Assembly (NCBI GenBank): GCA_021161865.1
Contig: JAGGZU010000124.1
Location: 1-40,851, forward strand
Source: Thermoplasmata archaeon
GTDB lineage: Archaea; Thermoplasmatota; E2; DHVEG-1; B18-G2
DNA: 40,851 bases
Reading direction: 5' to 3'
Of this stretch, positions 24,322 through 40,851 are shown one piece after another (within the stretch, counting starts at the first letter, position 1; the number at the start of each line of letters is the position of its first letter). The translations under genes were made by a program, and so were the position numbers. The notes beneath the pieces were generated by a model, which saw only the letters and a program-made list of their open reading frames with translations, made no database searches and had not been told where the DNA came from.

Positions 24322-25775
24322 AACCTCTCGACAGACTTCAAAAGATTCCTATTAGAATCATAAACGTCAACCTTCAAAGCCAAACCACCAGGTAAAGTAT
24401 GAGATGCACAAGCGAAACACGGGTCATAAGCACGGAAAGCCATCTCAACCTTATTCAACAAACCATCACTAACCACACCCTTCTTTATCACACCCTTTGC
24501 TGCATCCCTAATCGACATGTTTATGGCACCAGCGTTGTTTGTTGTAGCAACAATCAAGTTAGCCTTCTCCACAAGCCCATCCTTATCAAGTTTATAATGG
24601 TGTATCAACGTACCACGTGCTGCTTCAACCACACCCACCCCTTCACCGGGTTCACCAACAGGATTCCTAATCTTACTAGAAGTTATCTCCGGATCCTTAA
24701 CCAACTCCAATGCTCTCTCAGACGCATACAACAACTCTATCAACCTAGCCCAATGAAAAGCAAGCGTAGAATTAACAGGTTTACCACCAAGGGTTTCATA
24801 AAAACGTTTATACTCCTTATCCGCAAGAGGAGTAGCCATACCCTCTGCAGCATTAAGCCTACCCAACGGCCCAACCCTGTAAATACCACTACTTTTTCCA
24901 TCAGTAAAACCCTTCCAACCAACTTTCTTAAGGTATGGAAACTTCACGTAACTCCATTCCTCAACATGCTCCGCAACATGCTCACCATACTCCCTGCCAC
25001 TAAACTTTAAAAACTCTTCACCGTTTTGATCAGTAACCCTGGTCATACCATCATAAAAGTTAACTCTGTTTTTTTCATCAACCAAACCCATGTTATACGT
25101 TTTAAGAGTAAAAGGATCACTGAGAATCATGTCCACATAACTCTTATTGTTCAACACTATCTCATCAAAAAGTTTCAAAGAAAACTTTGCGAAATCAACG
25201 CATGACTCAACCATCCTTTCGATTTCTCTACGTTCCTCCTCTGAAATAGGTTTAGAGACTCCACCAGGTAAACCACACACAGGATGAGTCGCCTTACCAC
25301 CGATTATAGCCGTAATCTTCTGCCCATAAGCACGATGTTTAATAACCTCCTTACCAACCTCCACTCCAGCTTTCTCAATAACCCCAAAAATATTCCTCTT
25401 CTCAGGTGGAGCCTCAGGTCCAACAACAAAATCCGGTCCACCAAGGAAATAAAAATGAAGAATATGATCATATATTATATAACCACAATACATGAGTTCC
25501 CTAATCTTTTTAGCAGCAGAAGACGGCTCAACATTGAAAGCATCATCCAAAGCCTTTGTTGAAGCCATATGATGAGCCACAGGACAAACACCGCAAATCC
25601 TAGATGTTATCTGCGGCATATCCTCAGCACGTCTACCCTGACAAAACCTTTCAAAACCTCTGAGCTCAGGAATCTGCAAATAAGCGTTCTCCACATTACC
25701 CTGATCATCAAGGAAAATACTGATCTTACCATGTCCCTCCAACCTAGTTATAGGATCAATCACAACAGTCTTCAT
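24318..25775 (-). CDS. mvhA: F420-non-reducing [NiFe]-hydrogenase large subunit (group 3c, MvhA-type)
   Basis: It has RLEGHG, the L1 motif RICGVCPVAHHMAS and the L2 motif DPCFACASH, followed by a C-terminal extension that is the protease substrate. Confidence 0.9.
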   Translation of the reverse strand: MKTVVIDPITRLEGHGKISIFLDDQGNVENAYLQIPELRGFERFCQGRRAEDMPQITSRICGVCPVAHHMASTKALDDAFNVEPSSAAKKIRELMYCGYIIYDHILHFYFLGGPDFVVGPEAPPEKRNIFGVIEKAGVEVGKEVIKHRAYGQKITAIIGGKATHPVCGLPGGVSKPISEEERREIERMVESCVDFAKFSLKLFDEIVLNNKSYVDMILSDPFTLKTYNMGLVDEKNRVNFYDGMTRVTDQNGEEFLKFSGREYGEHVAEHVEEWSYVKFPYLKKVGWKGFTDGKSSGIYRVGPLGRLNAAEGMATPLADKEYKRFYETLGGKPVNSTLAFHWARLIELLYASERALELVKDPEITSSKIRNPVGEPGEGVGVVEAARGTLIHHYKLDKDGLVEKANLIVATTNNAGAINMSIRDAAKGVIKKGVVSDGLLNKVEMAFRAYDPCFACASHTLPGGLALKVDVYDSNRNLLKSVERL

Positions 25776-26764
25776 TTTTTAATCACCCTCCTATTTATCA
25801 GAGAACGAGGCAGAGTATACCGGTAAAAGGTTCCAAGCGGGTCCTTAACCTGATCAACAAGTTTCCTAATCTCCTCTTCACTCATATTCTCCTCATTCTC
25901 CACGCCAAGCACAGAAGCAAGAGCAGAAAGCATTTTCGCACCTTGATCAAAAGAGTTAGGTGTAGGTCCACCGCAACCTGTACAAGGCATGTTAGCGTCT
26001 AAACACGCTGCTCCGCAGCCTCCCCGAGTAGCAGGACCCATACAAATTATCCCTTGTTCAAGAAGACAAACGTTTGGGTCAACATTTTCAACCTCATAAA
26101 CCCGTTTAATCTCCTTGATTTTTTTCTCCGACCTCTCCCTAGGGCATTCGTCACAAACTGATTTCAAAGGAGCAAGAACACTACCCTTAGGCGGCAACTT
26201 GTTTTCCACTATAGCATCAATGGCTTGAGAAATCAGTTTCGTCGGCGGAGGACAACCAGGAATATAATAATCAACATCAACAACCTGATCAAGGGTTTTC
26301 ACAGTATCATAAAACTCCGGTAAAGTAAGCTCACCCTCACTAACCCTTGTTTTAGTTTTAGGCGTAACCTTACCAGGGTTATCAGTAGAAGGATTATCAA
26401 CGTAAGCAACATCAAAGATCTCCTCACGGTTTGAAACATTCGCTAAACCAGGTATACAACCATCAGCTGCACATGAACCAAAAGCAACAAGTATCTTAGC
26501 TTTTTTCCTAAGAAGTTTAGCCATATGCTCGTTTTCCGATGTTCTAATTGCTCCATTGAAAAAACAAACGTCAAGGCTTTCATCATCCATAGCCTCAACA
26601 TCACTATATTTCGTGTCCATCGCAACCGGCCAAAAAAGTATGTCAACATGCTCAACAACCTCAAGGATTTTCTCGTTGATATCCAAAACAGCTATCTCAC
26701 AGCCTCCGCAGCTTGCAGCCCAATAAAAGGCAAACTTTAACTTACCCTTATTTTCACTGCTCAT
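25772..26764 (-). CDS. mvhG: F420-non-reducing hydrogenase small subunit (MvhG-type)
   Basis: It has YWAASCGGCEIAVLD, GSCAADGCIPG, and distal cluster cysteines (CPRE, CMGPATRGGCGAAC, CTGCGGP). Confidence 0.85.
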   Translation of the reverse strand: MSSENKGKLKFAFYWAASCGGCEIAVLDINEKILEVVEHVDILFWPVAMDTKYSDVEAMDDESLDVCFFNGAIRTSENEHMAKLLRKKAKILVAFGSCAADGCIPGLANVSNREEIFDVAYVDNPSTDNPGKVTPKTKTRVSEGELTLPEFYDTVKTLDQVVDVDYYIPGCPPPTKLISQAIDAIVENKLPPKGSVLAPLKSVCDECPRERSEKKIKEIKRVYEVENVDPNVCLLEQGIICMGPATRGGCGAACLDANMPCTGCGGPTPNSFDQGAKMLSALASVLGVENEENMSEEEIRKLVDQVKDPLGTFYRYTLPRSLINRRVIKK

Positions 26765-27177
26765 TGTTCACCCCTCAAAGGATTCGGACCAATCTCCTTT
26801 ATTTCTTCAACAAACTCCTTCACCACGTTAGCAAACTTTTGTCCCTCAGAAGCAGAAACATACTCAAACCTCACCCTCCGAGGATTTATATTAAGCTGCT
26901 GAAGCAACTCCTTAAGCAAAATAACCCTTCTGTTAGCCTTGTAATTACCAGACTGATAATGACAGTCACCAGGGTGACAACCAGCTATAAGCACACCATC
27001 AGCCCCTTTTTTCAACGCTTCAAGCACAAAAACAGGGTCAACCCTCCCAGAGCACATGACCCTAATTGGTTTAACATTAGCAGGATAAATGAGTCTACTT
27101 GTACCAGCGAGATCAGCGCCAGCATAAGCACACCAGTTGCATAAAAAAGCAACAATATTTGGTTCAAAATCGCTCAT
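26761..27177 (-). CDS. mvhD: Methyl-viologen-reducing hydrogenase delta subunit (MvhD, [2Fe-2S])
   Basis: AFLCNWCAYAGADLAG...VMCSGRVDP...GADGVLIAGCHPGDCHY is the MvhD/FlpD signature. Confidence 0.9.
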   Translation of the reverse strand: MSDFEPNIVAFLCNWCAYAGADLAGTSRLIYPANVKPIRVMCSGRVDPVFVLEALKKGADGVLIAGCHPGDCHYQSGNYKANRRVILLKELLQQLNINPRRVRFEYVSASEGQKFANVVKEFVEEIKEIGPNPLRGEQ

Positions 27178-29150
27178 GCTTCACCTCCCAACACATCAAC
27201 CACCGCCAGAATCTGATCGTCCTTGAACCCCTTCTGCTGCATAGCTCCAGATGGACAAGCAGCGACACAACTACCGCATCCCTTACAAAGTGCTTCAACA
27301 ACCCTTGCAACATACTTATTATCCTCTTTTTTCATCAGTTCTATAGCGTTGAAACTACAAACAGAAACACAAGTAGCGCAACCTGAACAAAAATCCTCAT
27401 CAACAAAAGCTATAAGCGGTTCAGCCTCCAACTCCTCCTTAGACAGTATGTTAGCCGCGCGAGATGCTGCTCCACTCGCCTGAGCAACACTATCCTGAAT
27501 ATCCTTAGGACCCTGACAGCAACCAGCTATAAAAATACCATCTGTGAAAGTATCCATTGGTTTAAGCTTAGGATGAGCCTCCAAAAAGAAACCATCGGCA
27601 CCTCTTGACACATGCAGAATCTTACCAAGGTCGGAAGAGTCATTCCTTGGAACAACCGCTGGAACCAAAACAACCAAATCCGTTTTAATCTCAAAAAGCT
27701 TGTTCGTCATCGTATCAAAAACATCAATAGTTAAACCATCCTTCTTCTCTTTCACCTCAGATGGGCGACCTCTGAAAAAGTTTGTTTTAACACCTCTTAT
27801 CCGCCTGTAAAACTCCTCATACCTTTTACCAAAAGAACGAATATCTGTGTAACAAATATTAATCTCAACATCATCACCAAGATGCTCCCTCAAAAGATAA
27901 GCCTGCTTCAAAGCAGTCATACAACCAACACGGCAACACCACGTGCAAACGGTTTCGTCACGTGAACCAACACAAAGAACAAAGGTTACACTCCCCGGCT
28001 TCCTTTGATCAGAGGGACAAACTATTTCACCACCGGTTGGACCAGAAGAACTAATAAGCCTTTCAAGCTCAAGAGTCGTTATAACATCCTTATAACGAGA
28101 ATAACCATACTCGTACAAAGCAGAGGGATCCAGCAGATCATAACCTGTTGCAACCACTATAACTCCAACCTCAAACTCCACCAACTCCTCCCTCTGAGTG
28201 AAATCAATAGCTTCTGCTTCACAAACATCCTGACACGCTGGCGACCTACCACATTTACCGTACCTGAGAAACAAACACTGTTCAGGGTCAATCGTAGCCT
28301 TCAAAGGGATAGCTTGAGGAAATGGTATATAAACAGCACCCCTCTTACCCAGGTTCATGTTGAACTCATCCGGAACCTTACCCTTCATCCTGCAAACATT
28401 AACGCAATCACCGCAACCGGTGCATTTATCAAAATCAACGTACCTTGGTTTCCTAACAACCTTAACCCTGTAGTTTCCAATGCTTCCATCAACACTAACC
28501 ACCTCAGAATAAGCAAATAACTCAATGTTTGGATGATTCTTCACATCCATCATCTTAGGAGTGAGTATACAAGAAGCGCAGTCCAAAGTTGGAAACGTTT
28601 TGTCAAGCTGAGCCATCCTACCCCCTATACTCGGCTCCTTCTCAACAAGATAAACATGGAAACCCTTCTCAGAGAGATCAAGAGACGCCTGAATACCAGC
28701 TATACCACCACCAACAACCAAAGCCTTAGGTGTAACCTTAACCTTCTCCCTAACTAATGGTTCAAGTAGTCTAACCTTCGCAACCGCACCCTTAACAAGC
28801 AACTTAGCTTTCTCCGTAGCCTCCTTTCTATCCGGGTGAACCCATGAACACTGCTCCCTGATGTTAGCGATTTCAAGAACAAAAGGATTTAAACCAGCCT
28901 CCTCAACAACCCTCCTAAAAGTATGCTCATGCATCTGCGGAGAACAACTTGCTACCACAACACCATCCAGTTTAAACTTTTTAATAGACTCCTTGATAAG
29001 GTTTGCACCATTATCGGAACACATGTACTTGTAGCTTTTACTAACCACAACACCATCGAGTTTACCCGCGAAATCAACAACCTCGTCAACGTCAACAGTT
29101 GCAGCAATGTTAACACCACAATGACAAACAAACACACCAATCCTATCCAT
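27174..29150 (-). CDS. hdrA: Heterodisulfide reductase subunit A (FAD, multiple [4Fe-4S]), set 1
   Basis: It has VFVCHCGVNIA, the FAD fingerprint VVGGGIAGIQASLDL, inserted and C-terminal ferredoxin motifs (CTGCGDCVNVC, CSGCATCVSVC, CKGCGSCVAACP), and no in-frame TGA. Confidence 0.9.
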   Translation of the reverse strand: MDRIGVFVCHCGVNIAATVDVDEVVDFAGKLDGVVVSKSYKYMCSDNGANLIKESIKKFKLDGVVVASCSPQMHEHTFRRVVEEAGLNPFVLEIANIREQCSWVHPDRKEATEKAKLLVKGAVAKVRLLEPLVREKVKVTPKALVVGGGIAGIQASLDLSEKGFHVYLVEKEPSIGGRMAQLDKTFPTLDCASCILTPKMMDVKNHPNIELFAYSEVVSVDGSIGNYRVKVVRKPRYVDFDKCTGCGDCVNVCRMKGKVPDEFNMNLGKRGAVYIPFPQAIPLKATIDPEQCLFLRYGKCGRSPACQDVCEAEAIDFTQREELVEFEVGVIVVATGYDLLDPSALYEYGYSRYKDVITTLELERLISSSGPTGGEIVCPSDQRKPGSVTFVLCVGSRDETVCTWCCRVGCMTALKQAYLLREHLGDDVEINICYTDIRSFGKRYEEFYRRIRGVKTNFFRGRPSEVKEKKDGLTIDVFDTMTNKLFEIKTDLVVLVPAVVPRNDSSDLGKILHVSRGADGFFLEAHPKLKPMDTFTDGIFIAGCCQGPKDIQDSVAQASGAASRAANILSKEELEAEPLIAFVDEDFCSGCATCVSVCSFNAIELMKKEDNKYVARVVEALCKGCGSCVAACPSGAMQQKGFKDDQILAVVDVLGGEA

Positions 29151-29167
29151 TCACGCTTCCTCCACTT

Positions 29168-30031
29168 TCAAACCTTCAACTTATCCACAGGGCTGAGATT
29201 CAAATCCAAACCAAGCTTCCTCTCATCCAAACCAAAAGCTAAACCAAGCAGCTGAGTAAGATAAAACACAGGAACCTCCAGTTTAGCAGCAACAGTTTCA
29301 CCAGCCTTCTTCTGCCTTGAATCAAACATCCTCTGACACCATGGACAAACCGTCACCAAACCATCAAAACCATGCTCCTCAACAGCCTGGAGTTTCTGAC
29401 CGGTTTTCGTTAAAGCAGACTCAGGCAGATTAACCAACAACAAACCACCGCAACAATCGAGTTTCTCAGCATAATCCATTGTTTCAGCACCCAAAGCCTC
29501 AAGAACCGCCTCAATCTTCATGGGGTTCTCAGAATCAACAGGTCTACCAATCTCACTTGGTCTAACCAGATGACAACCATAATGTGACGCAATCTTCAAA
29601 CCCTTCAAAGGCTTCTTCACATGTTTTTTAATCTCCTTAACACCAACATGATCATACAATAAATCAACAGTGTGAACAACACCAACTTTACCCTTATACT
29701 CCAGGTCTTCGGAAGCAAGCATCTCGTTAACCCTGCTCCTCATCCCTCCATCGTTGTCTAAAATGTTTTTACATTCACTTAAAGCAAAATGACACACACT
29801 GCAGGGAACAAAAAGATCAAAACCCTGCTGTTCAGCGATCGCAAGATTCCTTGCAGAAAGATACAAAGTCAAAAGCTGATTAATACTTTTCACAGGTTCA
29901 CCGCAACAAGAAAAGTTTTCCACATCAACCAGCTCAACGCCCAACACTGGGAAAACCTCCCTAATAGAAAGCTCGTAACCATACTGCTCCGTCTGCATCA
30001 CACAACCCGGGTACAGAGTATATTTTTTCAT
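29168..30031 (-). CDS. hdrB: Heterodisulfide reductase subunit B with two complete CCG motifs, set 1
   Basis: Motif 1 is PGC...SCCGEP...VPCSVCH. Motif 2 is HYGCH...DCCGG...VCPWCQ. Both fit CXnCCXnCXXC. Confidence 0.9.
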   Translation of the reverse strand: MKKYTLYPGCVMQTEQYGYELSIREVFPVLGVELVDVENFSCCGEPVKSINQLLTLYLSARNLAIAEQQGFDLFVPCSVCHFALSECKNILDNDGGMRSRVNEMLASEDLEYKGKVGVVHTVDLLYDHVGVKEIKKHVKKPLKGLKIASHYGCHLVRPSEIGRPVDSENPMKIEAVLEALGAETMDYAEKLDCCGGLLLVNLPESALTKTGQKLQAVEEHGFDGLVTVCPWCQRMFDSRQKKAGETVAAKLEVPVFYLTQLLGLAFGLDERKLGLDLNLSPVDKLKV

Positions 30032-30043
30032 CTAAACTTCCCC

Positions 30044-30571
30044 TTACACCTTCTCAACAGCCAGTTTAGTCAAAACCATCTGAAACTTAGAAGCATCCTT
30101 TGGTTTAGAAACCCTTGGTAAACCAAGATCTTCTCTCCTCCTCGTTTTCATATCCCGTGTCTGTACCTCCTGAACATCCTGAATCAAACCCATTGACAAA
30201 ATCGACTGAAGCATACTAGTGTAGTTACCAGGAATCTGCTTACCTCCCATAACAGCCAGGTTTTTCAAAGCAAACAAAACATCAACAGGTGAAACCTTCT
30301 GCGGGCAACGTTCCCTGCATTTAAAACAACTCATACAAGTCCAAATAACATCAGAGTTAACCATCTCATCAATCAAACCACGTTTAAGCAAAGCCATAAT
30401 CTTATGAGGCTCAAGCTCAAGAAGCTTATGAGCCTCACAACCAGAAGTACACTTAGCACACTGAAAACAGTAATCAGACAACTCATTCTGAAGCCTCAAC
30501 AACCTATTGTTTATCTCCTCCCTCAACTCAACCTGAGCTTCAGCCATGGACGTCAAATCCTTTATGCTCAT
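30044..30571 (-). CDS. hdrC: Heterodisulfide reductase subunit C (2x[4Fe-4S]), set 1
   Basis: It has CFQCAKCTSGCEA and CMSCFKCRERCPQ. I chose the ATG at 30571, since the track start at 30583 is TTG. Confidence 0.85.
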   Translation of the reverse strand: MSIKDLTSMAEAQVELREEINNRLLRLQNELSDYCFQCAKCTSGCEAHKLLELEPHKIMALLKRGLIDEMVNSDVIWTCMSCFKCRERCPQKVSPVDVLFALKNLAVMGGKQIPGNYTSMLQSILSMGLIQDVQEVQTRDMKTRRREDLGLPRVSKPKDASKFQMVLTKLAVEKV

Positions 30572-30979: not shown

Positions 30980-31452
30980 ATGATGGAATTAAAAAACGAG
31001 TTTATCATGCCACCTACCAAGCTTGGTTACTCCACAGGGGACGGCAAAGTTACAGATAGACATATAAACTTCTATAAAGTTAGAAGTAAACATCTTGGTG
31101 CTATCGCTATCGAACCAATGTATCTAGATAAGGGTTTAAGGGAAATACCCAACCAACTTGGTATAGACAACGATGACAAAATCAAAGGTTTAAAAAACTT
31201 GTTTATGCTGTACATGAAACAGATACAAAGGTTACAAAAATAGATGGTGACAAAATCTATATAGCTGGTAGAGAAAAAGGTGTTTTAGAAGGTGTAAATC
31301 ATATAATAATAGCCACCGGTATGAAAAGTTATAACCCTTTAGAGGAGAAACTTAGAGGTAAACTACCAGTATACGTAATAGGGGATGCCAAACAGGTTGG
31401 TAAAGCAAAGGATGCTATTGAAAGTGCCTTTGATTTAGCAAGTAAACTTTAA
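30980..31452 (+). pseudogene. Decayed NADH:flavin oxidoreductase (Old Yellow Enzyme / 2,4-dienoyl-CoA reductase-type) remnant: N-terminal about 80 codons, a frameshift, then an internal deletion joining to the extreme C-terminus
   Basis: Frame 1 gives MMELKNEFIMPPTKLGYS...HINFYKVRSKHLGAIAIEPMYLD...DDKIKGLKN. After the A6 run (31192-31197) the homologous reading continues in another frame as KKLVYAVHETDTKV. It then runs into ...HIIIATGMKSYNPL...PVYVIGDAKQVGKAKDAIESAFDLASKL, a typical C-terminus of the FAD/NAD domain. Confidence 0.65.
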
Positions 31453-32312
31453 ATTAACCTATCTACGGGACTTAGATTAAGGTTTAAACCCAACCTATCT
31501 GGATTTCTACCCACCGCCAGTCCCACAAGCTGTGTCAAATAGAACACCGGTACATCCAGTTTCTCCCCAATTGTACTCCCTGCCTTCTCTTGTTTCCCAT
31601 CCAAAAGTCTACCACCATAAGGACAAACGATAGCTAGTGCATCAAACCCTCTATCCTTAACCGCCTTCAGTTTCTCCCCGGTTTTTGTAAGAGCAGCCTC
31701 CTTATGAGTAACCATCAATGGTGCACCACAACAGTTCAGTTTCTCAGAGTAATTCCACGTCTCGCCACCAATAGCCTTTATAATCTCCTCCATCTTACTT
31801 GGATGCTCCGCAGCATCCGGTCTACCCGCCTCAGTATATCTAATGGTGTGACAACCATAATGGCAGGCTATCTTCCATTTAACAGGGTTACTAACCTTCT
31901 CCTTTATCCTCTCCACCCCAATTACATCATGCAACAGATCAACTGTGTGATAAATCTCTAAATCACCTCTGTACTCCAAGCCCTCATTTTCCTTCAGTTT
32001 TTTAACAATCTTCTCCCTAAGTTCCTTAGAGTTGTTGAGACGATTTTTTGTCTCAACTAAAGATAAATGACCCAAGGCGCAGGGAACAAACATATCCAAA
32101 CCCTTTTCCTCACATACCGCTATATTCCTAGCAGAAAGATACATCTGCATCAACAGATTAACGCTTCTCAAAGGCGCTCCGCAACAAGAGGTATTTTCCA
32201 AATCAACCAGTTCCACACCAAGATCAGGCAAAACCTCCCTAATGCTCATCTCATAAGCATACTGCTCTGCGGACATCACGCATCCAGGATAAAAACCAAG
32301 TTTTCTAATCAT
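31449..32312 (-). CDS. HdrB-like subunit with degenerate CCG motifs (terminal Cys of both motifs replaced by Gly), set 2
   Basis: It is a collinear 287-aa paralog of hdrB set 1. It has SCCGAP...VPCALGH and NCCGAP...VCPYGGR. I trimmed the track ORF (32522) to the ATG at 32312, because the extension overlaps hdrC2. Confidence 0.85.
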   Translation of the reverse strand: MIRKLGFYPGCVMSAEQYAYEMSIREVLPDLGVELVDLENTSCCGAPLRSVNLLMQMYLSARNIAVCEEKGLDMFVPCALGHLSLVETKNRLNNSKELREKIVKKLKENEGLEYRGDLEIYHTVDLLHDVIGVERIKEKVSNPVKWKIACHYGCHTIRYTEAGRPDAAEHPSKMEEIIKAIGGETWNYSEKLNCCGAPLMVTHKEAALTKTGEKLKAVKDRGFDALAIVCPYGGRLLDGKQEKAGSTIGEKLDVPVFYLTQLVGLAVGRNPDRLGLNLNLSPVDRLI

Positions 32313-32322: not shown

Positions 32323-32853
32323 TCATAGTTTCTCCGCTGCCAGCTGAGAAAGAGCTGACATAAAACCATTAATATTCTTAGGATGGCCCCGCTTCGGTAA
32401 ACCAAGTTTCTCCCTACTCCAACCCTTATTATCCTTATCCAAAACCTCAACAGGTTCCTGTATATACCCTGTTGACAATATTCCCTGCAGCAGGTTTTGA
32501 TAATCTCCAGGTAGCGACCCACCAGACATCACGTACCAGTTTTTAAGGATAAACATCACGTCAACGGGGCTCATCTCCTGAGGACACCTTTCTTTACATT
32601 TAAAGCAGCCAACGCAAGCCCAGATTACATCAGAGTTCATCATCTCATCCAAAAAACCGGTTTTAACAGAAGCCATGACAGAATGAGGTTGAAGCTCAAG
32701 CAGTTTCATAGCCTCACAACCAGAGGTGCACTTGGCACACTGGAAACATAAACTAGGATTCTTTACACCAAGTACAGCCAACTGTCTTATAAGCTCCTTC
32801 TGTTTATCGCCCTCCGGTTTAGACATATTAAATAAATCCGTTAAACCCATCAT
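32323..32853 (-). CDS. hdrC: Heterodisulfide reductase subunit C, set 2
   Basis: It has CFQCAKCTSGCEA and CVGCFKCKERCPQ. By eye it is highly similar to set-1 HdrC. It shares an ATGA overlap with hdrA2. Confidence 0.85.
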   Translation of the reverse strand: MMGLTDLFNMSKPEGDKQKELIRQLAVLGVKNPSLCFQCAKCTSGCEAMKLLELQPHSVMASVKTGFLDEMMNSDVIWACVGCFKCKERCPQEMSPVDVMFILKNWYVMSGGSLPGDYQNLLQGILSTGYIQEPVEVLDKDNKGWSREKLGLPKRGHPKNINGFMSALSQLAAEKL

Positions 32854-35156
32854 TGCACCCCCTTCAAATACTCAGCCATTTCCCTGCAACTCCTCTGAAA
32901 CTTCTGCCCATCAGGTGTAAGAATCTCAACAAAACGAAGCCTGTTAACATCAACACCTTTCTCCTCCAAGATTTCCCTGGCTTTCATGTACTTCTCCTCA
33001 GCAGCCTCAGTACCATCTACATAATGACACAAACCCTTAGGACATGCAAAAATCATCACGCCCTTAGCTCCTTTCTCAAATGGATAAAGAATATCCTCTA
33101 CGCTTAACCTACCCACACAGGGCAGCTTCACCACCTTCACCATTGAAGGATACTCCATCCTGCTTGTACCAGCAATATCAGCAGCATTATAACCACAGGT
33201 TTCAGTGGTATAAGCAATAACAGAATCCGGATCCCCCTCCAATATACCATCAACCTGCGCCCTAAGCTGCGCCTTTGTGAGATGTCTTATCTCTATAGCA
33301 TCCTCAGGGCAAACAGAAACACATTTACCACAACCCTTACAAGCCATATCCACAACTTCATAGCTCTCAGTAATCGCGCCGTACCTACAAGCCTCTCTGC
33401 ACAAACCACATCTTGTACATTTATCTGGATCAATTACTGCAGTGGTTAAATCCACAGTGGCAACATCATCCTTCAATATCGTAGCAACCCGGCTAGCTGC
33501 AGCACCAGCATCGGTTATACTATCCTGAATAGACTTGGGCCCCTCCGCTGTACCAATGATGTAGATTCCCTCAGTTGTTGTATCAACCGGAGCAATCTTA
33601 ACATGCAACGGTGAAAGAAACTTATCCAGCCCATACTGTAAATGCAAAACCTTAGCCATCCTTTTTGTACCCTCAGACGGCTCCAAAGCCGTTGCCAAAA
33701 CAATTAAATCAGATTCAACCCGCATAAACTTATTAGTAGCCTTATCAAACACATCAAAAAACAGTCTACCATCAGGTGTATCCATTATCTGAGAAGGCCT
33801 ACCCATTATCATGTTGATATTCTTCTCACGGGCAAGAGCATAATACTCCTCATTCCTACGACCAGGTGCCCTAATATCTATGTAACACATGTTTATAGTA
33901 GCATCCGGAAACTTAGCACGCATAATCTTAGCGTTTTTAATAGAATACATACAGCAGATGTTGGAACAGTACTCCTTATGTCTCTTATCCCTTGAACCAG
34001 CACACTGAATAAAAGTGATGGTTTTCGGTTCCCTACCATCAGAAGGACACACAACTTTACCACCGGTTGGACCGGATGGAACAATCATCCTCTCCAGTTC
34101 CAAACCAGTTATAACATCAGGGTGCTCATAATAGTACTCAGTATTACTCAGATCAGTCTGCTGATAACCTGTTGCAACAACTATGGCCCCAACCTTAAGT
34201 TCCCTCCTCTCCTTTTTCTGATTGAAATCCACAGCATCAGCCGGACAAACCTTTTCACATATCCCACATACACCCTTGTTGATTTTTAAACAGGCCTCCT
34301 CTTCTATGAAAGCAGCGTTTGGAACAGAACCATCAAATGGTATATGAATAGCCTTTGTTTTATCTAAACCAAGATTGTAGTTGTTTGGAATAGATACTGG
34401 GCATTTCTCAGTACATAACCCGCAGGCTGTACATCTATCCAAATCAACGTACCTTGGTTTAGTTTCAACAGTAACATTGTAATCCCCAACTCTCCCAGAT
34501 AGACCAACAACCTCAGACAAGGTTAAAAGCTCTATATTTGGATGAGCTTTAACCTCATTCATTATAGGCGAAACCGTGCACATGGAGCAGTCATCGGTGG
34601 GAAAGGTTCTACCAAGTTTCGTCATGTTTCCACCAATGGACGCTTCCTTCTCAACAAGATAAACATGGAAACCCTTGTCTGCAAGTTCAAGAGATGCATG
34701 CATTCCCGCTATACCAGCACCTATAACAAGAACATCCCTATTAACAGGCACATCCACAGTACCTATAGGCTCATGATGCTGAACCTTATTAATGGCTCCT
34801 TTGATAATAGAATAAGCCTTCTTAGTAGCCTCCTCCCTGTCAGAGTGTACCCAGGAACAATGCTCCCTGATGTTAGCCATCTCAAACATGTAAGCATTCA
34901 GTTTCTGCTTCACACAATCCTTAAAAATATTCCAATGATGCTTAGGGGAACAACTGGCAATAACCAGTCTATCCACATCCTTGTTTTTATCCAAAGTATC
35001 AAGAATCATCTGCTGCCCTGCTTCCGAGCAGAGAAACATGTGATTCTTAACAACAAGGTTTTTATCCTTAGAAAACTCCTTTTTAAGTTTCTCAATATCC
35101 ACCGTTGCAGCTATGTTGTCCCCACAATGACATAGAAAGACTGCTGTTTTACCCAT
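32850..35156 (-). CDS. hdrA: HdrA fused to a C-terminal MvhD domain, set 2
   Basis: The HdrA core has VFLCHCGDNIA, VIGAGIAGMHASLEL and several ferredoxin motifs. The last roughly 130 aa are MvhD-like (TETCGYNAADIAGTSR...LPCVGRLS...GAKGVMIFACPKGLCHY). Confidence 0.85.
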   Translation of the reverse strand: MGKTAVFLCHCGDNIAATVDIEKLKKEFSKDKNLVVKNHMFLCSEAGQQMILDTLDKNKDVDRLVIASCSPKHHWNIFKDCVKQKLNAYMFEMANIREHCSWVHSDREEATKKAYSIIKGAINKVQHHEPIGTVDVPVNRDVLVIGAGIAGMHASLELADKGFHVYLVEKEASIGGNMTKLGRTFPTDDCSMCTVSPIMNEVKAHPNIELLTLSEVVGLSGRVGDYNVTVETKPRYVDLDRCTACGLCTEKCPVSIPNNYNLGLDKTKAIHIPFDGSVPNAAFIEEEACLKINKGVCGICEKVCPADAVDFNQKKERRELKVGAIVVATGYQQTDLSNTEYYYEHPDVITGLELERMIVPSGPTGGKVVCPSDGREPKTITFIQCAGSRDKRHKEYCSNICCMYSIKNAKIMRAKFPDATINMCYIDIRAPGRRNEEYYALAREKNINMIMGRPSQIMDTPDGRLFFDVFDKATNKFMRVESDLIVLATALEPSEGTKRMAKVLHLQYGLDKFLSPLHVKIAPVDTTTEGIYIIGTAEGPKSIQDSITDAGAAASRVATILKDDVATVDLTTAVIDPDKCTRCGLCREACRYGAITESYEVVDMACKGCGKCVSVCPEDAIEIRHLTKAQLRAQVDGILEGDPDSVIAYTTETCGYNAADIAGTSRMEYPSMVKVVKLPCVGRLSVEDILYPFEKGAKGVMIFACPKGLCHYVDGTEAAEEKYMKAREILEEKGVDVNRLRFVEILTPDGQKFQRSCREMAEYLKGVQ

Positions 35157-35163: not shown

Positions 35164-35553
35164 TCAACCCCTATCTTCCACCTCTTTAGCAGGTATAGGA
35201 TCTTTAATAACATCAGATGAATTAAAGGTGGATAAAAAGAAGTTTTTTGTAAGCTTTATAGCGCCAGTTGGACAAATGTCCTCACAAAGAGCACAAAAAC
35301 AACATTTACCTATATCCACCCTTGGATATTTCTTAGGATATTTCTCCTTATATTTCTCTGGTGCTTCAACCATATCTATGGCCTTATTTGGACATATCTT
35401 AGCGCAAAGATTACATGATATGCATTTGTCTACATCGTAACTATGCTCCCCTCTGTATCCATCCGGTATTGGATTAGACTCATGTGGAAACCTGGTTGTG
35501 ATGGGTTTAGAAACCATATTTTTTAATATTTTAGGGACTACCTTCATCTTCAT
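35164..35553 (-). CDS. NuoI / HycF / MbhN-type 2x[4Fe-4S] ferredoxin subunit
   Basis: It has GYRGEHSYDVDKCISCNLCAKICPNKAI and DIGKCCFCALCEDICPTGAIKLT. The length and spacing are typical of the TYKY-type subunit. Confidence 0.75.
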   Translation of the reverse strand: MKMKVVPKILKNMVSKPITTRFPHESNPIPDGYRGEHSYDVDKCISCNLCAKICPNKAIDMVEAPEKYKEKYPKKYPRVDIGKCCFCALCEDICPTGAIKLTKNFFLSTFNSSDVIKDPIPAKEVEDRG

Positions 35554-35559
35554 CTTTTA

Positions 35560-36681
35560 TCACCTATCGATATCAGCTGGGCATCCATTTAAACTCCAGT
35601 ATATCGCTGGTACATCAGCTATCTGTGCATCCCTCAATAGAAACTCTAAAACCGGTATAATATGCAGAAAACTTGGTCCTCGAATCTTTACTCTATATGG
35701 TTTGATTCCACCATCGCTAACCATATACACCCCTGCTTCCCCTCTTCCAATCTCATTCCTAATATATGCCTCACCTTCAGGTATCTTCATATTGAGTTTT
35801 GGTTTGCTAAACTCTTTTGCTATAAAATCTCCATCAGGTAAGTCTTTCAAAGCCTGTTTTATAATACCTACCGATTGTTCCATCTCCTCCAATCCTATTT
35901 GAAACCTTGCATAGGCGTCTCCTTCTTTTCTAACAGGTATCTCGAAATCAAATCTATCATACACCTCATATGGTTCTTCTTTCCTAACATCCGTCTTCAA
36001 ACCACTGGCTCTTAAAACAGGTCCTGTCGCACCTAACCTTATCGCATCCTTCAGATTCAATATACCTACGTCTTTTAATCTAGCTAGATTTGCAGGGTTT
36101 TCTGCTCTCTCAAAATCTATCATCTTCCCTATTTTATCCAAGACATTCAGTATCTTTTCCTCCGCTGATTCCGGCAAATCCCTTCTAACGCCACCAGGGC
36201 ATATATACCCTGCAGGATAAACTCTTCCACCAGTTATTAACTCAAACAAATCAAGTATAAAATCCCTGTAACCAAACGCCAGTTTGAACCCCGTATCAAA
36301 ACCTGTGCCAATTGAGATAATTCCATACCATATAAGATGAGACTGTATCCTGGACAACTCTGCCATTATAACCCGTATATATTTTGCTCTTTCAGGTACC
36401 TCCACACCCATCAACTCATCTACAGCCTCAGCGTGTACAAGATTCCAAGCCAAGGATTCGAGTACGCATATTCTATCAGATAAAACAGCATTTTGTAGAG
36501 GCAACCTATACTCCATTAATTTCTCAAAACCTCTATGCAGATACCCTGGATCTGCCCTCGCAGATACTATCCTCTCTCCATCCACTTTAAGCTTAACAGA
36601 GAAGTTACCGGAGCCAGGATGAGCTGGACCAAAGAACAACTCATAGGTATCATCATCTATCTTCTCCATAGTTCCCTGCAT
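35560..36681 (-). CDS. NuoD / group-4 [NiFe]-hydrogenase large-subunit-like protein retaining only 2 of the 4 Ni-Fe cysteine ligands
   Basis: It has FGPAHPGSG, GYLHRGFEKLME and a C-terminal ...GCPADIDR. The L1 position reads RICVLES (CxxE) and the L2 position reads NGCPADIDR (CxxD). The start was set to the ATG at 36681, 1 nt after the nuoC-like stop; the track start at 36789 overlaps nuoC by 107 nt. Confidence 0.8.
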   Translation of the reverse strand: MQGTMEKIDDDTYELFFGPAHPGSGNFSVKLKVDGERIVSARADPGYLHRGFEKLMEYRLPLQNAVLSDRICVLESLAWNLVHAEAVDELMGVEVPERAKYIRVIMAELSRIQSHLIWYGIISIGTGFDTGFKLAFGYRDFILDLFELITGGRVYPAGYICPGGVRRDLPESAEEKILNVLDKIGKMIDFERAENPANLARLKDVGILNLKDAIRLGATGPVLRASGLKTDVRKEEPYEVYDRFDFEIPVRKEGDAYARFQIGLEEMEQSVGIIKQALKDLPDGDFIAKEFSKPKLNMKIPEGEAYIRNEIGRGEAGVYMVSDGGIKPYRVKIRGPSFLHIIPVLEFLLRDAQIADVPAIYWSLNGCPADIDR

Positions 36682-36682
36682 T

Positions 36683-37201
36683 TCAGTCCCTCCCAAAATA
36701 GGCTGATTCTCTATCATTATCTTTGCTGTAATACTCATTTCTAACGTATTCTCTCCAATCAAAGTCCTTCCTAAATGGAGCTGGTCCATCCCAATCCTCT
36801 AAGAAGAGAGGTGATAAATCGGGATTTCCCTTGAATTTAACTCCAAACAGCTCATGCATCTCCCTCTCATGTATCTGAGAACTTTCACCCCATATTTTAG
36901 AAACGGTTTCAATCTCTGGATTTTCCCTATCTACCATCGTTTTAATGGTTATAAGGATTTTATCATCATAAGACCATATATGATAGGTTAACTCGTATTC
37001 TCCTTTTTTAGGCCAATCTGTTACAGAGAGGGCGGACAGATGTTTAAAACCAAGCTTATTTTTTACAAACATACATAAATCAATCAAATCCTCTGACGGA
37101 GACTTCACCCATATCCTTCTTTCTCTCTGAATCCCTACGTCCACCTTGAAATTTTTGGTTATATTCTCTATGATTTCCTTCTCTCTCACCGACTCAACCA
37201 T
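36683..37201 (-). CDS. NuoC / 30-kDa subunit-like protein
   Basis: LSALSVTDW...YELTYHIWS...SKIWGESSQIHEREMHELFGVKFKGNPD is the Complex1_30kDa signature. Confidence 0.8.
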   Translation of the reverse strand: MVESVREKEIIENITKNFKVDVGIQRERRIWVKSPSEDLIDLCMFVKNKLGFKHLSALSVTDWPKKGEYELTYHIWSYDDKILITIKTMVDRENPEIETVSKIWGESSQIHEREMHELFGVKFKGNPDLSPLFLEDWDGPAPFRKDFDWREYVRNEYYSKDNDRESAYFGRD

Positions 37202-37202: not shown

Positions 37203-37637
37203 TTACTTCATCTCCTCTACATGTTTGAAGATCTTTCCAACCGCCTCAAATACTGCCTCTGGTCTAGGTGGACAACCCGGTATATACATTGTAACTGGCA
37301 GATAATCCTCCAATCTTTTTATTGTGTTATATGAATCCCAGTACATACCGCCCGTCATAGTACATGAACCCAGTGCGATTACCACCTTTGGCTCAGACGT
37401 CTGCTCATATATCCTCTGCGCTCTTTTGATTGATTTTAAAGTCTGATACCCCGCAATGAATAAAACATCTGCATGCCTAGGGTTTCCTACAACAATTATG
37501 CCAAATCTCTCCATATCCCATCTGGATCCAACAAGGGGAACCAACTCGCAGAATCCACAAGAGTTAAACCAGTTAAAAACCCATATCGCCTTTATAAGCC
37601 TCTTCATAACCTTTTTTTGTGGAGATTCCTCACTCAT
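37203..37637 (-). CDS. NuoB / group-4 hydrogenase small-subunit-like protein ([4Fe-4S], CxxC type)
   Basis: It has SCGFCE, GSCTMTGG and IPGCPPRPE. I chose the ATG at 37637, since the track start at 37667 is GTG. Confidence 0.8.
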   Translation of the reverse strand: MSEESPQKKVMKRLIKAIWVFNWFNSCGFCELVPLVGSRWDMERFGIIVVGNPRHADVLFIAGYQTLKSIKRAQRIYEQTSEPKVVIALGSCTMTGGMYWDSYNTIKRLEDYLPVTMYIPGCPPRPEAVFEAVGKIFKHVEEMK

Positions 37638-37715: not shown

Positions 37716-38669
37716 CTAACTCATCTTCTCCTTAACCGCATTCGTCAACTTAGGTAGAACCTCATAGAGGTCTCCCACAATACCATAGTCGGCGGATTTA
37801 AATATTAATGCTTCAGGATCCTTGTTTATCGCAACCACCACATCCGAGTCACGCATACCAGCTATATGCTGAATCTGACCAGAAATACCAACAGCAATGT
37901 AAAGCTTCGGTTTAACCTTATGCCCAGATAAACCAATCCAATGATCCTCAGACAACCATTTCAGATCAGCAGCAATCGGTCGAGAACAACCGGTTGTTCC
38001 CCTTAACACCTTGGCCAGCTCCTCCACCAATTGTATATCCTCTTTTTTCTTGAACCCTCTACCACAGGAAACAATGATTTCAGCGTCCTCAACATTCACT
38101 TCACCGGTTTTCATCTCCTTAACGTCAACAATCCTTGAAGGATACCTATCCACCTTCACCTCTTTTTTAATCACCTCCCCAGCTCTACTCTCATCTTCTG
38201 GGAGAGGGTCAAAAACCTTAGGAGGTATGGTAACAACAGCGGGTTTAGAGTTAAACCGTTCAACAGCAATGGCGTTACCACTGTAAACCACTCTCTCAGT
38301 GGTAAGTTTCCCATCCTTTACGTAAAGGTTTATGCAGTCTATCACACAACCTGTGTCAAGCTTTGCAGCTAGACGGGAGGCAAGCTCTTTACCGTTTTTA
38401 GTGGAACCGACAATAACAACCTCCTCGTTGGTTTCCTCAAGAATCTTCTCCATCGCGTCAGTGTACTCCTCGCCCTTGAATGTGTTCAACCCTGTTTTAA
38501 CCATGAAAACCCTGTCGGCACCATGCATTATATATTTTTTAGCCAAGCTTTCATCATCAGTGTCAAACACTACAGCAGTAGCCTTCTCATCCAACTCCTT
38601 GGAAACATCCTTGGCCTTAGCTATCAACTCAAGCATGTTTTTTTCATCATCAGAGTAAACAAGCACCAT
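37716..38669 (-). CDS. etfA: Electron transfer flavoprotein alpha subunit
   Basis: The C-terminal FAD-binding block is IVSCGRG...PKLYIAVGISGQIQHIAGMRDSDVVVAINKDPEALIFKSADYGIVGDLYEVLP. Confidence 0.85.
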   Translation of the reverse strand: MVLVYSDDEKNMLELIAKAKDVSKELDEKATAVVFDTDDESLAKKYIMHGADRVFMVKTGLNTFKGEEYTDAMEKILEETNEEVVIVGSTKNGKELASRLAAKLDTGCVIDCINLYVKDGKLTTERVVYSGNAIAVERFNSKPAVVTIPPKVFDPLPEDESRAGEVIKKEVKVDRYPSRIVDVKEMKTGEVNVEDAEIIVSCGRGFKKKEDIQLVEELAKVLRGTTGCSRPIAADLKWLSEDHWIGLSGHKVKPKLYIAVGISGQIQHIAGMRDSDVVVAINKDPEALIFKSADYGIVGDLYEVLPKLTNAVKEKMS

Positions 38670-38675: not shown

Positions 38676-39440
38676 TCACCTCAAAACACCCTCTTTAGCA
38701 AGACTATCAACCAGTTTCTCCACAGCCTCATCAACATCATCCTGATAAACAATGTTTTTCCTCTCCATAGAAACCCCTTTAACCTCAACCGTTTCCATCT
38801 TAGGAGTAAGCTCCTTCACACCAAGCGACTCCATACTCCACTCATTGATTGGTTTGTTAGCAGAGGCAAGTATCTGCATAAGACTGGGTAACCTGGGTTC
38901 ATTAATCTCTTTAGTAACCGTTATAAGCACAGGGTATGGTGACTCCATTGTTACAACAACATCACCCACATCCCTTTCAGCAACAACCTTATCCTTCTCA
39001 GCATCAACCTTCCTGGCGTATGTTATCTGAGGAATCCCAAGAAGACCTGCTAACCTCGGTCCCATCTGACCAGAAAACAAGTCAATTGATGCCTCCCCAC
39101 CAAGTACAATATCATAGTCTCCTATCTTCTTTATCGCAGCAGCCAACAACTTAGACACCACATCATAATCAGCGTTCTCAGGTGCAGAAACTATCACAGC
39201 CTCATCAGCACCCATAGCAAGTAGCTCCTTAACCCTCTCCTTAGCGTCGGATGAACTAACGGTTAAAACCGTGACCTTACCGCCATGTTTCTCCTTTATT
39301 CTTATTGCCTCCTCCACAGCGTTTTTATCGATATCACTTATCTTCAAAGGAACACCCTGCAACACCGGCTTCTTAGTGCTGGGGTCAACCTTGATCTCAG
39401 ACACATCAATAACCTGCTTCGCACAAACAACTATATTCAT
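38676..39440 (-). CDS. etfB: Electron transfer flavoprotein beta subunit
   Basis: MNIVVCAKQVIDVSE...DKNAVEEAIRIKEK...DIVLGGEASIDLFSGQMGPRLAGLLGIPQITY...INEPRLPSLMQI is typical EtfB. Confidence 0.85.
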   Translation of the reverse strand: MNIVVCAKQVIDVSEIKVDPSTKKPVLQGVPLKISDIDKNAVEEAIRIKEKHGGKVTVLTVSSSDAKERVKELLAMGADEAVIVSAPENADYDVVSKLLAAAIKKIGDYDIVLGGEASIDLFSGQMGPRLAGLLGIPQITYARKVDAEKDKVVAERDVGDVVVTMESPYPVLITVTKEINEPRLPSLMQILASANKPINEWSMESLGVKELTPKMETVEVKGVSMERKNIVYQDDVDEAVEKLVDSLAKEGVLR

Positions 39441-40851
39441 AGCCTAACCTCCATACCTTTCCTCTTCATCTCCAACTCCCTTAACTCCTTTCTCTTTATC
39501 TTACCGCTCTGCGTCTTAGGCAGCTCCTCAACAAACTCAATCTCCCTAGGATACTTGTAGGGTGCAGCATTCTCCTTCATAAACCGTTGAATATCCTTAA
39601 CCATCTCATCACCTGGTTCAAACTCCTCATTAAGTATAACAAATGCTTTAACAATCACACCCCTCATCTTGTCAGGGCTTGCAACCACTGCAGCTTCAAG
39701 AACAGCAGGATGCTCAATGAGAGCACTCTCCACCTCAAAAGGCGAAACCCTGTAACCAGCGGTCATAATAAGGTCATCACCACGAGCGGCAAACCAATAA
39801 TAACCCTCCTCATCCATGTAAACGGTGTCACCGGTTAAAAACCAACCGTTTTTAAAAGCCTCCCTTGTTTTATCAGGTTTATTCCAGTACTCAAGGAAAA
39901 GCCCAGGGTCATCATCTTGCACAGCAAGAGTACCAAGTTCACCAGGTTTAACAGGGTTACCTTTTTCATCAACAACCCCGCAGACATGACCGGGCTGAGG
40001 CTTACCACATGAACCCGGTTTAATCGGCAAACCAGGCATGTTTGAAAGATAAACCATGACCTCAGTCATACCGATACCATCATATATTGTTACACCAAAC
40101 CGTTTCTTCCACGCCTGAATAACCTCAGGGTTAAGTGGTTCACCAGCACTAATACAATGCCTAAGCTCAGATAAATCATACTTTTTCTCTGCATCCTTAA
40201 CCGTGAGAAACATTCTATACGCTGTGGGAACCGAGGCAAGATTAGTCACGCGGTATTTCTCAAGCAAAGAAAACCATTTCTCAGGATCAAACCTGCCATC
40301 ATAAAGTAAAACAGATGCTGCATGACGCCAGGCATAAATAAAAGCGTTACCCAACGGATAAATCCAGCTGAGAGCACCAGTATGAGCAACAATATCATCA
40401 GGTTTATAGACCTGCCAGTACAAAGCGTTTGGATCGTTACCAATAGCCCAACGATGAGCATGAACTGCACCCTTCGGCATACCCGTTGTTCCACTCGTGT
40501 AACAGAAAAACGCCATGTCATCAGGTTTAGTATCAGCCACCTTAAGGTGATGAGAAGCGTTTTTCATCAAATCATAAAACGAAAGTTGATCTTTCTCTGC
40601 ATCCCCGACAACAATGATATGTTTCAATGTTGGACAGGAATGTTTTACCTCCTCTACCTCCTTAACATACTCTGGTGTGGTCACAGCAAGAACCGCTGCA
40701 CTATCATTAATCCTGTACTCCACCTCCTTAGCTTTAAACATCACACTACTTGGAATAGGAACAGCACCAATTTTCACACCACCCAAAAAAACCATCTGGA
40801 ACTCAGGGACATTTGGTAAACGTATTAGAAAACGATCACCCTTTTTAACAC
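39437..40851 (-). CDS. AMP-dependent acyl-CoA synthetase/ligase, 5'-partial (continues beyond the window edge)
   Basis: It has FCYTSGTTGMPKGAVHAH, YDGIGMTE, GDTVYMDEEGYYWFAARGDDLI and PKTQSGKIKR. The reading frame stays open upstream of the first ATG (..VKKGDRFLIRLPNVPEFQ MVFLGG..), so the true start lies outside the window. Confidence 0.85.
   Translation of the reverse strand, partial: VKKGDRFLIRLPNVPEFQMVFLGGVKIGAVPIPSSVMFKAKEVEYRINDSAAVLAVTTPEYVKEVEEVKHSCPTLKHIIVVGDAEKDQLSFYDLMKNASHHLKVADTKPDDMAFFCYTSGTTGMPKGAVHAHRWAIGNDPNALYWQVYKPDDIVAHTGALSWIYPLGNAFIYAWRHAASVLLYDGRFDPEKWFSLLEKYRVTNLASVPTAYRMFLTVKDAEKKYDLSELRHCISAGEPLNPEVIQAWKKRFGVTIYDGIGMTEVMVYLSNMPGLPIKPGSCGKPQPGHVCGVVDEKGNPVKPGELGTLAVQDDDPGLFLEYWNKPDKTREAFKNGWFLTGDTVYMDEEGYYWFAARGDDLIMTAGYRVSPFEVESALIEHPAVLEAAVVASPDKMRGVIVKAFVILNEEFEPGDEMVKDIQRFMKENAAPYKYPREIEFVEELPKTQSGKIKRKELRELEMKRKGMEVRL

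Follow-up and report, generated by a model that had tools for sequence, protein, structure and literature searches.

The window analysed here, a stretch of 40,851 nucleotides from a Thermoplasmata archaeon (contig JAGGZU010000124.1), carries on its minus strand, at 35560-36681, a gene for a 373-residue protein (L) that is related to the large subunits of [NiFe]-hydrogenases and of complex I. L belongs to a four-gene module of gene order J-K-L-N, as in MBS (formerly Mbx), the sulfane-sulfur reductase of Pyrococcus furiosus; it reads RIC72-VL-E75 in its N-terminal part and GC367-PA-D370-IDR-stop at its end, with one Cys at each of the two places where hydrogenases have a CxxC pair. When checked base by base on the minus strand, the four codon positions proposed in an earlier sequence-only reading of the window proved exact: Cys72 is TGC (36466-36468), Glu75 is GAA (36457-36459), Cys367 is TGC (35581-35583) and Asp370 is GAT (35572-35574). 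Arg373 (35563-35565) is followed by the TGA stop (35560-35562), and L has, as that reading said, no protease-cleaved extension; the MvhA encoded in the same window (24318-25775) has both complete pairs attributed to it, RICGVCPVAH and DPCFACASH, and a tail of 26 residues. The ATG start of L (36679-36681) lies immediately 3' of the stop codon of the NuoC-like gene, with a GGGAGGG box ~7 nt upstream. A longer open reading frame (ORF) that reaches 36789 (409 aa, 36 codons more upstream) runs into the NuoC-like gene; in public annotations of the species L is given a length of 385-392 aa, and homologs are 369-375 aa long.

To judge from its sequence, L is a NuoD-like large subunit of the MbsL/MbxL type, in an iron-sulfur module that derives from hydrogenases and lacks nickel. 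Pfam assigns it to Complex1_49kDa (4e-73) with a weak match to NiFeSe_Hases (1.3e-7), and among all PDB sequences its best match is P. furiosus MbsL (6u8y_L, from the MBS structure PDB 6U8Y; E 2.3e-97), with Nqo4 of T. thermophilus (2fug_4, 2.9e-72) and the hydrogenase subunit MbhL (6cfw_L, 2e-48) scoring lower. The HMMER alignment of L with 6u8y_L is gapless round both relic motifs: R-I-C72-V-L-E75 (36457..36468), the counterpart of hydrogenase RxCGxC, falls on MbsL RIC85VPE88, and C367-P-A-D370-I-D-R373 (35563..35583), the counterpart of hydrogenase DPCxxCxxR/H, falls on C385PPD388IDR. The retained Cys residues do align with NiFe-ligand positions, the homology check that had been suggested for them, and the earlier statement of a two-of-four-Cys state in the Mbx/MBS large subunit was also sound, C72 and C367 being the homologs of MbsL C85 and C385. 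In a neighbour-joining tree the window L falls into a large subclade that is sister to the P. furiosus-type clade; the former is marked by DR[ILV]C[VI]LExLNWN and SLNxCPAD[ML]DR, the latter by RICVPEPD and CPPEIER.

The public name of these proteins, "NADH-quinone oxidoreductase subunit D", arises because L passes the generic NuoD model of NCBIfam (NF004739, 396 bits against a cutoff of 360), and no MbsL-specific model is found in that collection. A Foldseek search with the model of L likewise gives the general NuoD/NdhH/MbsL fold, with NdhH, NuoD and MbsL chains level at a TM-score of ~0.8. The reading of L as a conventional NuoD or FpoD, part of a complex I-like enzyme that reduces quinone or methanophenazine, is very improbable all the same, and the motif tests already largely refute it. 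The Nqo4 quinone-site residues are missing (H38 is a gap and Y87 is Val73 in L; MbsL lacks both residues too), J has no tandem CC, and the FpoD model gives 324 bits, far under its 600-bit cutoff; in addition, related operons bear Mrp-type arms and not NuoA/J/K/L/M/N, and L scores far better against MbsL than against any NuoD. A still-active [NiFe]-hydrogenase variant, in favour of which the NiFeSe_Hases match and a HycI-type protease gene in the window might be cited, is hardly credible: the four-Cys pattern RxCGxCxxxH plus DPCxxCxx(H/R) is absent from L, which has two of the four ligands and no cleavable C-terminal extension, the hydrogenase proton-relay Glu (MbhL E21; HPAVHEP in the hydrogenase paralogs) aligns with Gly, and the protease gene adjoins mvhA, whose product has the tail. 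The earlier verdict that L is neither a four-Cys hydrogenase nor a Cys-free NuoD thus stands, its quartet being C-E-C-D and its nearest solved relative P. furiosus MbsL.

Cys72 and Cys367 are relics of the NiFe site, with Glu75 and Asp370 standing in for the lost partner Cys residues, and the quartet is a family-wide signature. In an alignment of 213 relatives, taken from 169 fetched loci and 120 database clusters, Cys-[E/D]-Cys-[D/E] occupies the four columns in 197 sequences, or 197 of 202 (~97%) once hydrogenase and NuoD sequences are set aside. Ten of the 213, all true hydrogenase paralogs, have CCCC and one, a Thaumarchaeota NuoD, has TDWE; in five family members one or both Cys, or Glu75, are replaced, the substituted quartets including NEVE (locus L060), CEYE (L079 and L080) and SECD (P0098). 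The quartet is kept in members with and without adjacent membrane genes. The two-Cys state noticed beforehand is real as an observation and no peculiarity of this gene, being the virtually invariant and already published signature of a very large family. According to the MBS structural study (PMC7684303), MbsL retains, as C85 and C385 beside the proximal cluster, two of the four Cys that serve MbhL as NiFe ligands, and a C85A/C385A mutant reduces dimethyl trisulfide as well as does the wild type; a review regards the two MbsL residues as a vestige of the NiFe site, conserved though non-catalytic, and terms their conservation surprising (PMC8165549), and vestigial ligand Cys had earlier been noted in mbx, mbx-like and Fpo NuoD homologs (PMC4758237). 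The two-Cys pattern, as a signature already published for MbsL, adds nothing new here; what is new is the subclade, the split encoding and the operon setting. The operon setting is the one unusual feature of the gene, and the motif would not surprise a bioenergetics specialist.

A different view of the same residues is that the Cys2-Glu-Asp quartet is a working site, holding another metal or acting as a thiol/persulfide relay, and that L rather than the J cluster is catalytic in the window clade. Conservation at ~97% across very divergent members would fit such a role, as would the surprise that the MBS authors themselves expressed at the conservation of dispensable Cys (PMC8165549) and an extra Cys in the window J, which might supply a fourth Cys ligand to the proximal cluster. 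It is improbable all the same, given that C85A/C385A MBS keeps its full dimethyl trisulfide reductase activity, that natural members with one or both Cys gone exist, that the extra J Cys is not conserved within the clade, and that the searched passages of the MBS study report only three [4Fe-4S] clusters and no further metal site in MbsL (PMC7684303). As a separate observation, Cys161 of L (GYICPGG) is invariant across the 30 close homologs aligned and is Ile in P. furiosus MbsL (YTIPGG).

The partner subunits, all on the minus strand, bear out the relationship. The MbsJ/NuoB-like small subunit (37203..37637; 144 aa from an ATG, 154 aa from a GTG at 37667) has 6u8y_J as its best PDB match (8.6e-38); the MbsK/NuoC-like subunit (36683..37201, 172 aa) matches Pfam Complex1_30kDa at 7e-30; and the MbsN/NuoI-like subunit (35164..35553, 129 aa), which matches the Pfam Fer4 families and the NCBIfam NuoI model (113.7 bits), has two four-Cys [4Fe-4S] motifs, CISCNLCAKICP and CCFCALCEDICP. 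The N subunit is the ferredoxin-docking subunit in MBS and MBH. Alignment of J with MbsJ, NdhK and hydrogenase J subunits shows a short loop, FNSCGFxE, and three conserved Cys (NSC, GSC, GCP) throughout the window clade; the tandem CC of N2-type clusters is absent, and the loop is ~3 residues shorter than the GSCNGCD-IE loop of hydrogenase J subunits from the same loci. The published account of MbsJ agrees: only three Cys ligate its proximal [4Fe-4S] cluster, the loop that bears them falls three residues short of that in MbhJ, and catalysis is assigned to this cluster (PMC7684303). The window J reads FNSCGFCE, in which an extra Cys lies three residues past the ligand Cys, so that a loop of MBS length shows CxxCE spacing like that of hydrogenases. 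As this position is variable, with Cys in about a third of clade members and A, T, S, I or M in the others, the extra Cys is treated as non-essential, though it may ligate the cluster.

Downstream of N, with 7 nt between the N stop and the next start, lies a gene for an HdrA2-type heterodisulfide reductase (Hdr) subunit with MvhD (FlpD) fused at its C-terminus (32850..35156, minus strand, 768 aa; Pfam FlpD at residues 646-765, with FAD and Fer4 domains), which scores 859 bits against the HdrA2 model of NCBIfam, under the 1100-bit cutoff. It is followed on the same strand, by domain matches, by HdrC2 (32323..32853, 176 aa) and by HdrB2 (31449..32312, 287 aa, two CCG domains). Upstream of J, again on the minus strand, are EtfA (37716..38669, 317 aa; Pfam ETF and ETF_alpha) and EtfB (38676..39440, 254 aa, from domain and solved-structure matches), the two subunits of an electron transfer flavoprotein (Etf), and an AMP-forming acyl-CoA ligase (ACS; 39437..40851, from domain matches) that is cut by the window end and has 545 aa on identical contigs. 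The closest solved relatives of EtfB are bifurcating Etfs (CarD, 1e-38; Bcd-Etf, 4e-38), and the xAIDGDTAQVG motif is not retained. An exact-sequence look-up found this EtfB, 100% identical, on four contigs from four samples. One contig, L170, is 99.6% identical to the window over 28676-40851 and reaches 3.4 kb beyond the window end, where it supplies the full-length CoA ligase (545 aa) preceded on the same strand by an acyl-CoA dehydrogenase (ACAD, 388 aa). Together these genes make up an operon of 11 genes, ACAD-ACS-EtfBA-JKLN-HdrA2C2B2, on a single strand with gaps of <80 nt, and it is seen on two of the four EtfB-identical contigs. None of its 11 proteins has a transmembrane-like segment, and tblastn finds no Mrp or MbsM homologs in the window, L170 or L171 (~44 kb); the absence of membrane subunits beside the module, as read earlier, holds for the whole window and for 3.4 kb past it.

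Further 3' on the minus strand, at 23869..30571, domain matches define a canonical HdrC1-HdrB1-HdrA1-MvhD-MvhG-MvhA cluster with the HycI-type protease, a cluster that JKLN-HdrA2C2B2 parallels. Taking Cx31-39CCx35-36CxxC as the reference for a complete CCG motif, HdrB2 (31449-32312) lacks the final Cys of both motifs, with PCALGH for PCxxCH and CPYGG for CPWCQ, its orthologs at L002:14417-15286 and L012:14436-15296 lack it in the second motif only, and both motifs are complete in HdrB1 of the window (29168-30031). An 87-aa ORF (30980-31243, plus strand) in the 850-bp gap that separates the two hdr clusters resembles the NADH:flavin oxidoreductase (OYE) profile only over its first ~75 positions, with a sub-cutoff score of 25 bits; also conserved on the identical contigs L170 and L171, the ORF is probably what remains of a gene. 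An acyl-CoA theme recurs elsewhere in the window: a minus-strand group at 19339-23809 comprises an enoyl-CoA hydratase, an HpaB-family protein (4-hydroxybutyryl-CoA dehydratase-like) and an adjacent DUF6125 protein, the ORF at 24-1403 (minus strand) is by Pfam an AMP-binding protein of the F390-synthetase/phenylacetate-CoA-ligase-like kind, and the ORF at 8151-9521 (plus strand) appears similar by eye only.

Relatives of the module were surveyed in 80 loci from GTDB genomes and in metagenome contigs. The window-like subclade is large, comprising >120 clusters (at 90% identity) that share 73% identity or more with the window L and come from Thermoplasmata, Heimdallarchaeota, Altiarchaeota, Dehalococcoidia, Atribacterota and Desulfobacterota. 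In its basal members, from Altiarchaeota, Desulfobacterales, some Dehalococcoidales and one Aenigmatarchaeota metagenome-assembled genome, JKLN lies within a classical operon together with Mrp-type subunits and a NuoH-like anchor; most Thermoplasmata, the Heimdallarchaeota and several Dehalococcoidia and Atribacterota have the bare four genes amid unrelated genes. JKLN-HdrA2C2B2 recurs in L002 (L 82% identical) and L012 (L 74%). In other lineages redox genes abut JKLN: an MvhD-2x[4Fe-4S] ferredoxin fusion overlaps the N stop (L019:4337-5233); HdrA, an FrhB-like gene, MvhD and thioredoxin lie upstream of J in L022, the thioredoxin gene (8370-8792) directly 5' of it; and downstream of a membrane-linked JKLN come a catalytic subunit resembling that of ferredoxin:thioredoxin reductase, NifU and a SLAC1/TehA-type channel (L029:11459-13825). 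The cassette is 72-76% identical between Thermoplasmata and bacteria (Dehalococcoidia L013, L014, L016, L020 and L061; Atribacterota/Caldatribacteriota L015 and L018), one bacterial copy, from Dehalococcoidia, lying on a 257-kb contig, and this cross-domain identity suggests that the head by itself was transferred horizontally in recent times. In L016 and L061 a complete operon of the hydrogenase type, distinct from JKLN, lies a few kb away.

Several apparent associations were discarded on inspection. The "HdrA" beside Heimdallarchaeota JKLN proved to be ferredoxins of 133-165 aa; the large transmembrane proteins near it are MMPL-type transporters and unrelated proteins; and the recurrent AMP-ligase matches near other JKLN loci gave no conserved acyl-CoA context, the neighbours being thiolase-like, CoaBC, tRNA synthetase and similar genes, with ACAD only in L011. 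The "Hdr-IFO" of Nobu et al. (via PMC5736913) is the FlxABCD-HdrABC cassette and has no relation to JKLN. No description of JKLN in an Etf/Hdr operon, or of orphan MbsJKLN cassettes, was found in the full-text literature, a search that left most subscription journals outside its reach.

Since L passes the sequence tests for the MbsL family and the module fails two of those for a complete MBS, in that it has no adjacent arm and that related arms have one antiporter subunit instead of two, the module is classed as an MBS-like peripheral module and L as a member of the MbsL family, rather than as a demonstrated MBS complex. With P. furiosus MBS it shares the J-K-L-N order, the L motifs RICVxE and CPxDIDR-stop, the short J loop with three conserved Cys, N with two 4Fe-4S clusters, and the lack of quinone-binding and proton-relay residues; it differs in that the window L belongs to a separate subclade and in having an Etf/Hdr operon instead of an adjacent arm, and its host is apparently a mesophilic sediment Thermoplasmata, whereas P. 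furiosus belongs to the Thermococcales. The J, K, L and N subunits are also homologous to those of MBH (MbhJKLMN, PDB 6CFW), in which, however, L is only ~35% identical, the quartet is CCCC, the J loop is longer and has CxxC, and an M gene stands between L and N. Ehr, an umbrella for group-4-like complexes whose large subunit lacks the full set of NiFe ligands and of which Mbx is one type (PMC6349859), is defined with Mrp-type membrane subunits, none of which adjoins the window JKLN.

Whether such subunits are encoded elsewhere bears directly on how the module is to be understood, for missing adjacent membrane genes are no proof of a soluble enzyme. On a split-operon explanation, JKLN would be no more than the peripheral part of a conventional MBS-like complex that sits in the membrane, oxidises ferredoxin and pumps ions, and whose Mrp-type arm and MbsM are encoded elsewhere; the position of JKLN between etf and hdr would reflect co-regulation or chance. 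A precedent for split encoding is found in Chloroflexi, where nuoBCDI is separated from the rest of nuo (PMC7117926). Within the family, the tree nests the L of P0013 (L088/L089), which shares 80% identity with the window L, next to the latter, and the JKLN of that locus is followed by MnhE, MrpF, MnhG, MbhD, MbhE, MnhB, a NuoK-like subunit, one antiporter subunit and NADHdh (MbsM). A scan of metagenomes with the L088 MbsM as query recovered 21 loci in which arm genes lead straight to mbsM without J, K and L; at least eight are fully visible, and these share the upstream thyX/RibD_C/Mut7-C synteny of L088. Complete Mrp-type arm operons that end in MbsM, have no J/K/L/N and lie directly after thyX are seen in L091, L097, L098, L105, L107, L111, L113 and L134, and in L093, L095 and L112 the equivalent arm operon bears a four-Cys hydrogenase J-K-L-M-N; the loci of the scan outside the 21 have four-Cys hydrogenase heads on arms that are ~70% identical. 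Arms without JKL and like arms with four-Cys heads together indicate that heads have been removed from, or swapped on, one arm type. In L047 an arm adjoins JKLN on the opposite strand.

Comparison of the modules themselves also fits a retained arm. The 23 orphan and 15 membrane-linked modules have the same per-site entropy, with values, in that order, of 0.83 and 0.81 for L, 0.59 and 0.63 for J, 1.04 and 1.15 for N, and 1.21 and 1.18 for K; there is no residue by which the two groups differ, and the orphans show no relaxed constraint. In tetranucleotide usage the sequences that flank orphan arms are as close to several orphan-JKLN loci (r of 0.93-0.97) as the two halves of one locus are to each other. 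For the window itself the picture is otherwise: no arm lies in it or in the 3.4 kb beyond, none of the retrieved orphan arms fits its genome (r at most 0.81; GC content 0.34-0.37 vs 0.416), and JKLN sits midway in a tight 11-gene operon. Moreover, the cassette alone has crossed domains (73-75% identity, Thermoplasmata vs Dehalococcoidia/Atribacterota), which is more easily explained if it works autonomously, and the P. furiosus JKLN subcomplex is soluble, stable and by itself reduces dimethyl trisulfide (PMC7684303). As an account of the locus the split-operon explanation is therefore judged possible though unfavoured; the narrower proposition, that JKLN docks on a membrane arm of the Mrp type whose genes lie elsewhere, has roughly even chances. 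Docking on such an arm and coupling to Hdr and Etf are mutually compatible. Arms of the same type (MbsM ~70% identical) serve either four-Cys, MBH-like heads or two-Cys heads in related sediment archaea, and those of the window clade (L088/L089) have one Proton_antipo_M subunit, as does MBH, where the MBS arm has two antiporter subunits, H and H' (PMC7684303).

The neighbourhood on the Hdr side suggests a parallel with MvhAGD-HdrABC (PDB 5ODC). L is homologous to MvhA and J to MvhG, N taking part for the other clusters, the genes directly downstream of the window JKLN supply an MvhD domain with HdrA, HdrC and HdrB, and a canonical Mvh-Hdr cluster lies next door. The window module differs in that MvhD is fused to HdrA, in that its physical link to HdrA is a putative one, and in lacking the NiFe site, so that H2 cannot be its substrate. 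HdrA2B2C2 of M. acetivorans (PMC5296606) has the same HdrA-MvhD fusion and the same order A2-C2-B2; against this, the window HdrA2 falls below the family cutoff, HdrB2 is degenerate, the neighbours are JKLN and Etf, and no methanogenesis genes are in view. Association of related heads with Hdr has been proposed before: in Methanomassiliicoccales, also Thermoplasmata, an Fpo-like complex with HdrD would act as a ferredoxin-oxidising head that feeds heterodisulfide reductase (bioRxiv 10.1101/2020.03.09.984617), and Asgard MBH-like complexes are predicted to have a peripheral Hdr module (bioRxiv 10.1101/2024.07.04.601786). Those cases have Fpo-type or four-Cys large subunits and membrane arms in the same locus; the window module has an MbsL-type L, HdrA2C2B2 instead of HdrD, and Etf and ACAD in addition.

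It thus appears probable that L serves in an MbsJ-K-L-N module, the peripheral arm of the MBS/Mbx type that also goes by the name Ehr, and that this module works with Etf and Hdr in an electron system linked to acyl-CoA oxidation. By analogy with P. furiosus MBS, ferredoxin would dock on N and electrons would enter at its two clusters, passing through three [4Fe-4S] clusters in all to the proximal three-Cys cluster of J, whose open iron, and not the Cys of L, would be where S-S bonds (of sulfane sulfur or polysulfide) are reduced. The operon and the L-MvhA and J-MvhG homologies suggest that beside HdrA2-MvhD the module takes the place held by MvhAG in the neighbouring canonical cluster. JKLN with Etf and Hdr may then constitute the ferredoxin- and sulfur-reactive end of a bifurcating or confurcating system fed by acyl-CoA oxidation through Etf. 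The homology of L and J to MvhA and MvhG supports coupling to Hdr, as do the JKLN-HdrA2C2B2 arrangements of L002 and L012 and the MvhD, thioredoxin or ferredoxin:thioredoxin-reductase-like genes that abut JKLN in other lineages.

A number of observations weigh against a joint Etf-JKLN-Hdr system of this kind. Etf 5' of J is confined to the window species (contigs of 97-99.6% nucleotide identity), and orphan JKLN cassettes lie mostly among unrelated housekeeping genes. Operon membership is no proof of a physical complex, HdrA2-MvhD fusions of Methanosarcina working without a hydrogenase-like partner (PMC5296606). Ferredoxin-dependent polysulfide/sulfane-sulfur reductase activity is known only for the P. 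furiosus enzyme (PMC7684303), and the window clade is only 45-50% identical to P. furiosus MbsL. The fourth Cys of the window J could, from its position, close the open iron site. Finally, the AlphaFold2 model of L, built from an input alignment of 30 sequences 73-87% identical to the query, has a mean pLDDT (predicted local confidence) of 67 that falls to <50 at residues 47-82 and 366-373, that is, at both relic motifs, and the model is consequently uninformative on whether the Cys, Glu and Asp residues converge.

The most far-reaching form of Hdr coupling would have a fully soluble JKLN replace MvhAG as the MvhD-wired partner of HdrABC, in a cytoplasmic megacomplex with ACAD and EtfAB that couples electrons from beta-oxidation and ferredoxin to S-S reduction at an open-iron [4Fe-4S] cluster. 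In this full form the proposal is doubtful. If it were true, it would represent a new class of bifurcating or confurcating complex and would explain what the thousands of orphan "NuoBCDI" cassettes do in the physiology of sediment archaea and bacteria.

The MbsL-like subclade is very abundant in anoxic sediments and is universally mislabelled NuoD, with the result that sulfur-linked ferredoxin oxidation has probably been overlooked in metabolic reconstructions of the organisms that carry it. Its peripheral and membrane arms are often encoded apart, and one arm type takes either a hydrogenase or a sulfur-reductase-like head, an interchange in which the kind of modular evolution proposed for complex I can be seen still at work. 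The ACAD-ACS-EtfBA-JKLN-HdrA2C2B2 operon of the window archaeon is a testable candidate for the disposal of beta-oxidation electrons in non-methanogenic archaea, and a candidate as well for the "heterodisulfide" partner chemistry of their Hdr enzymes.

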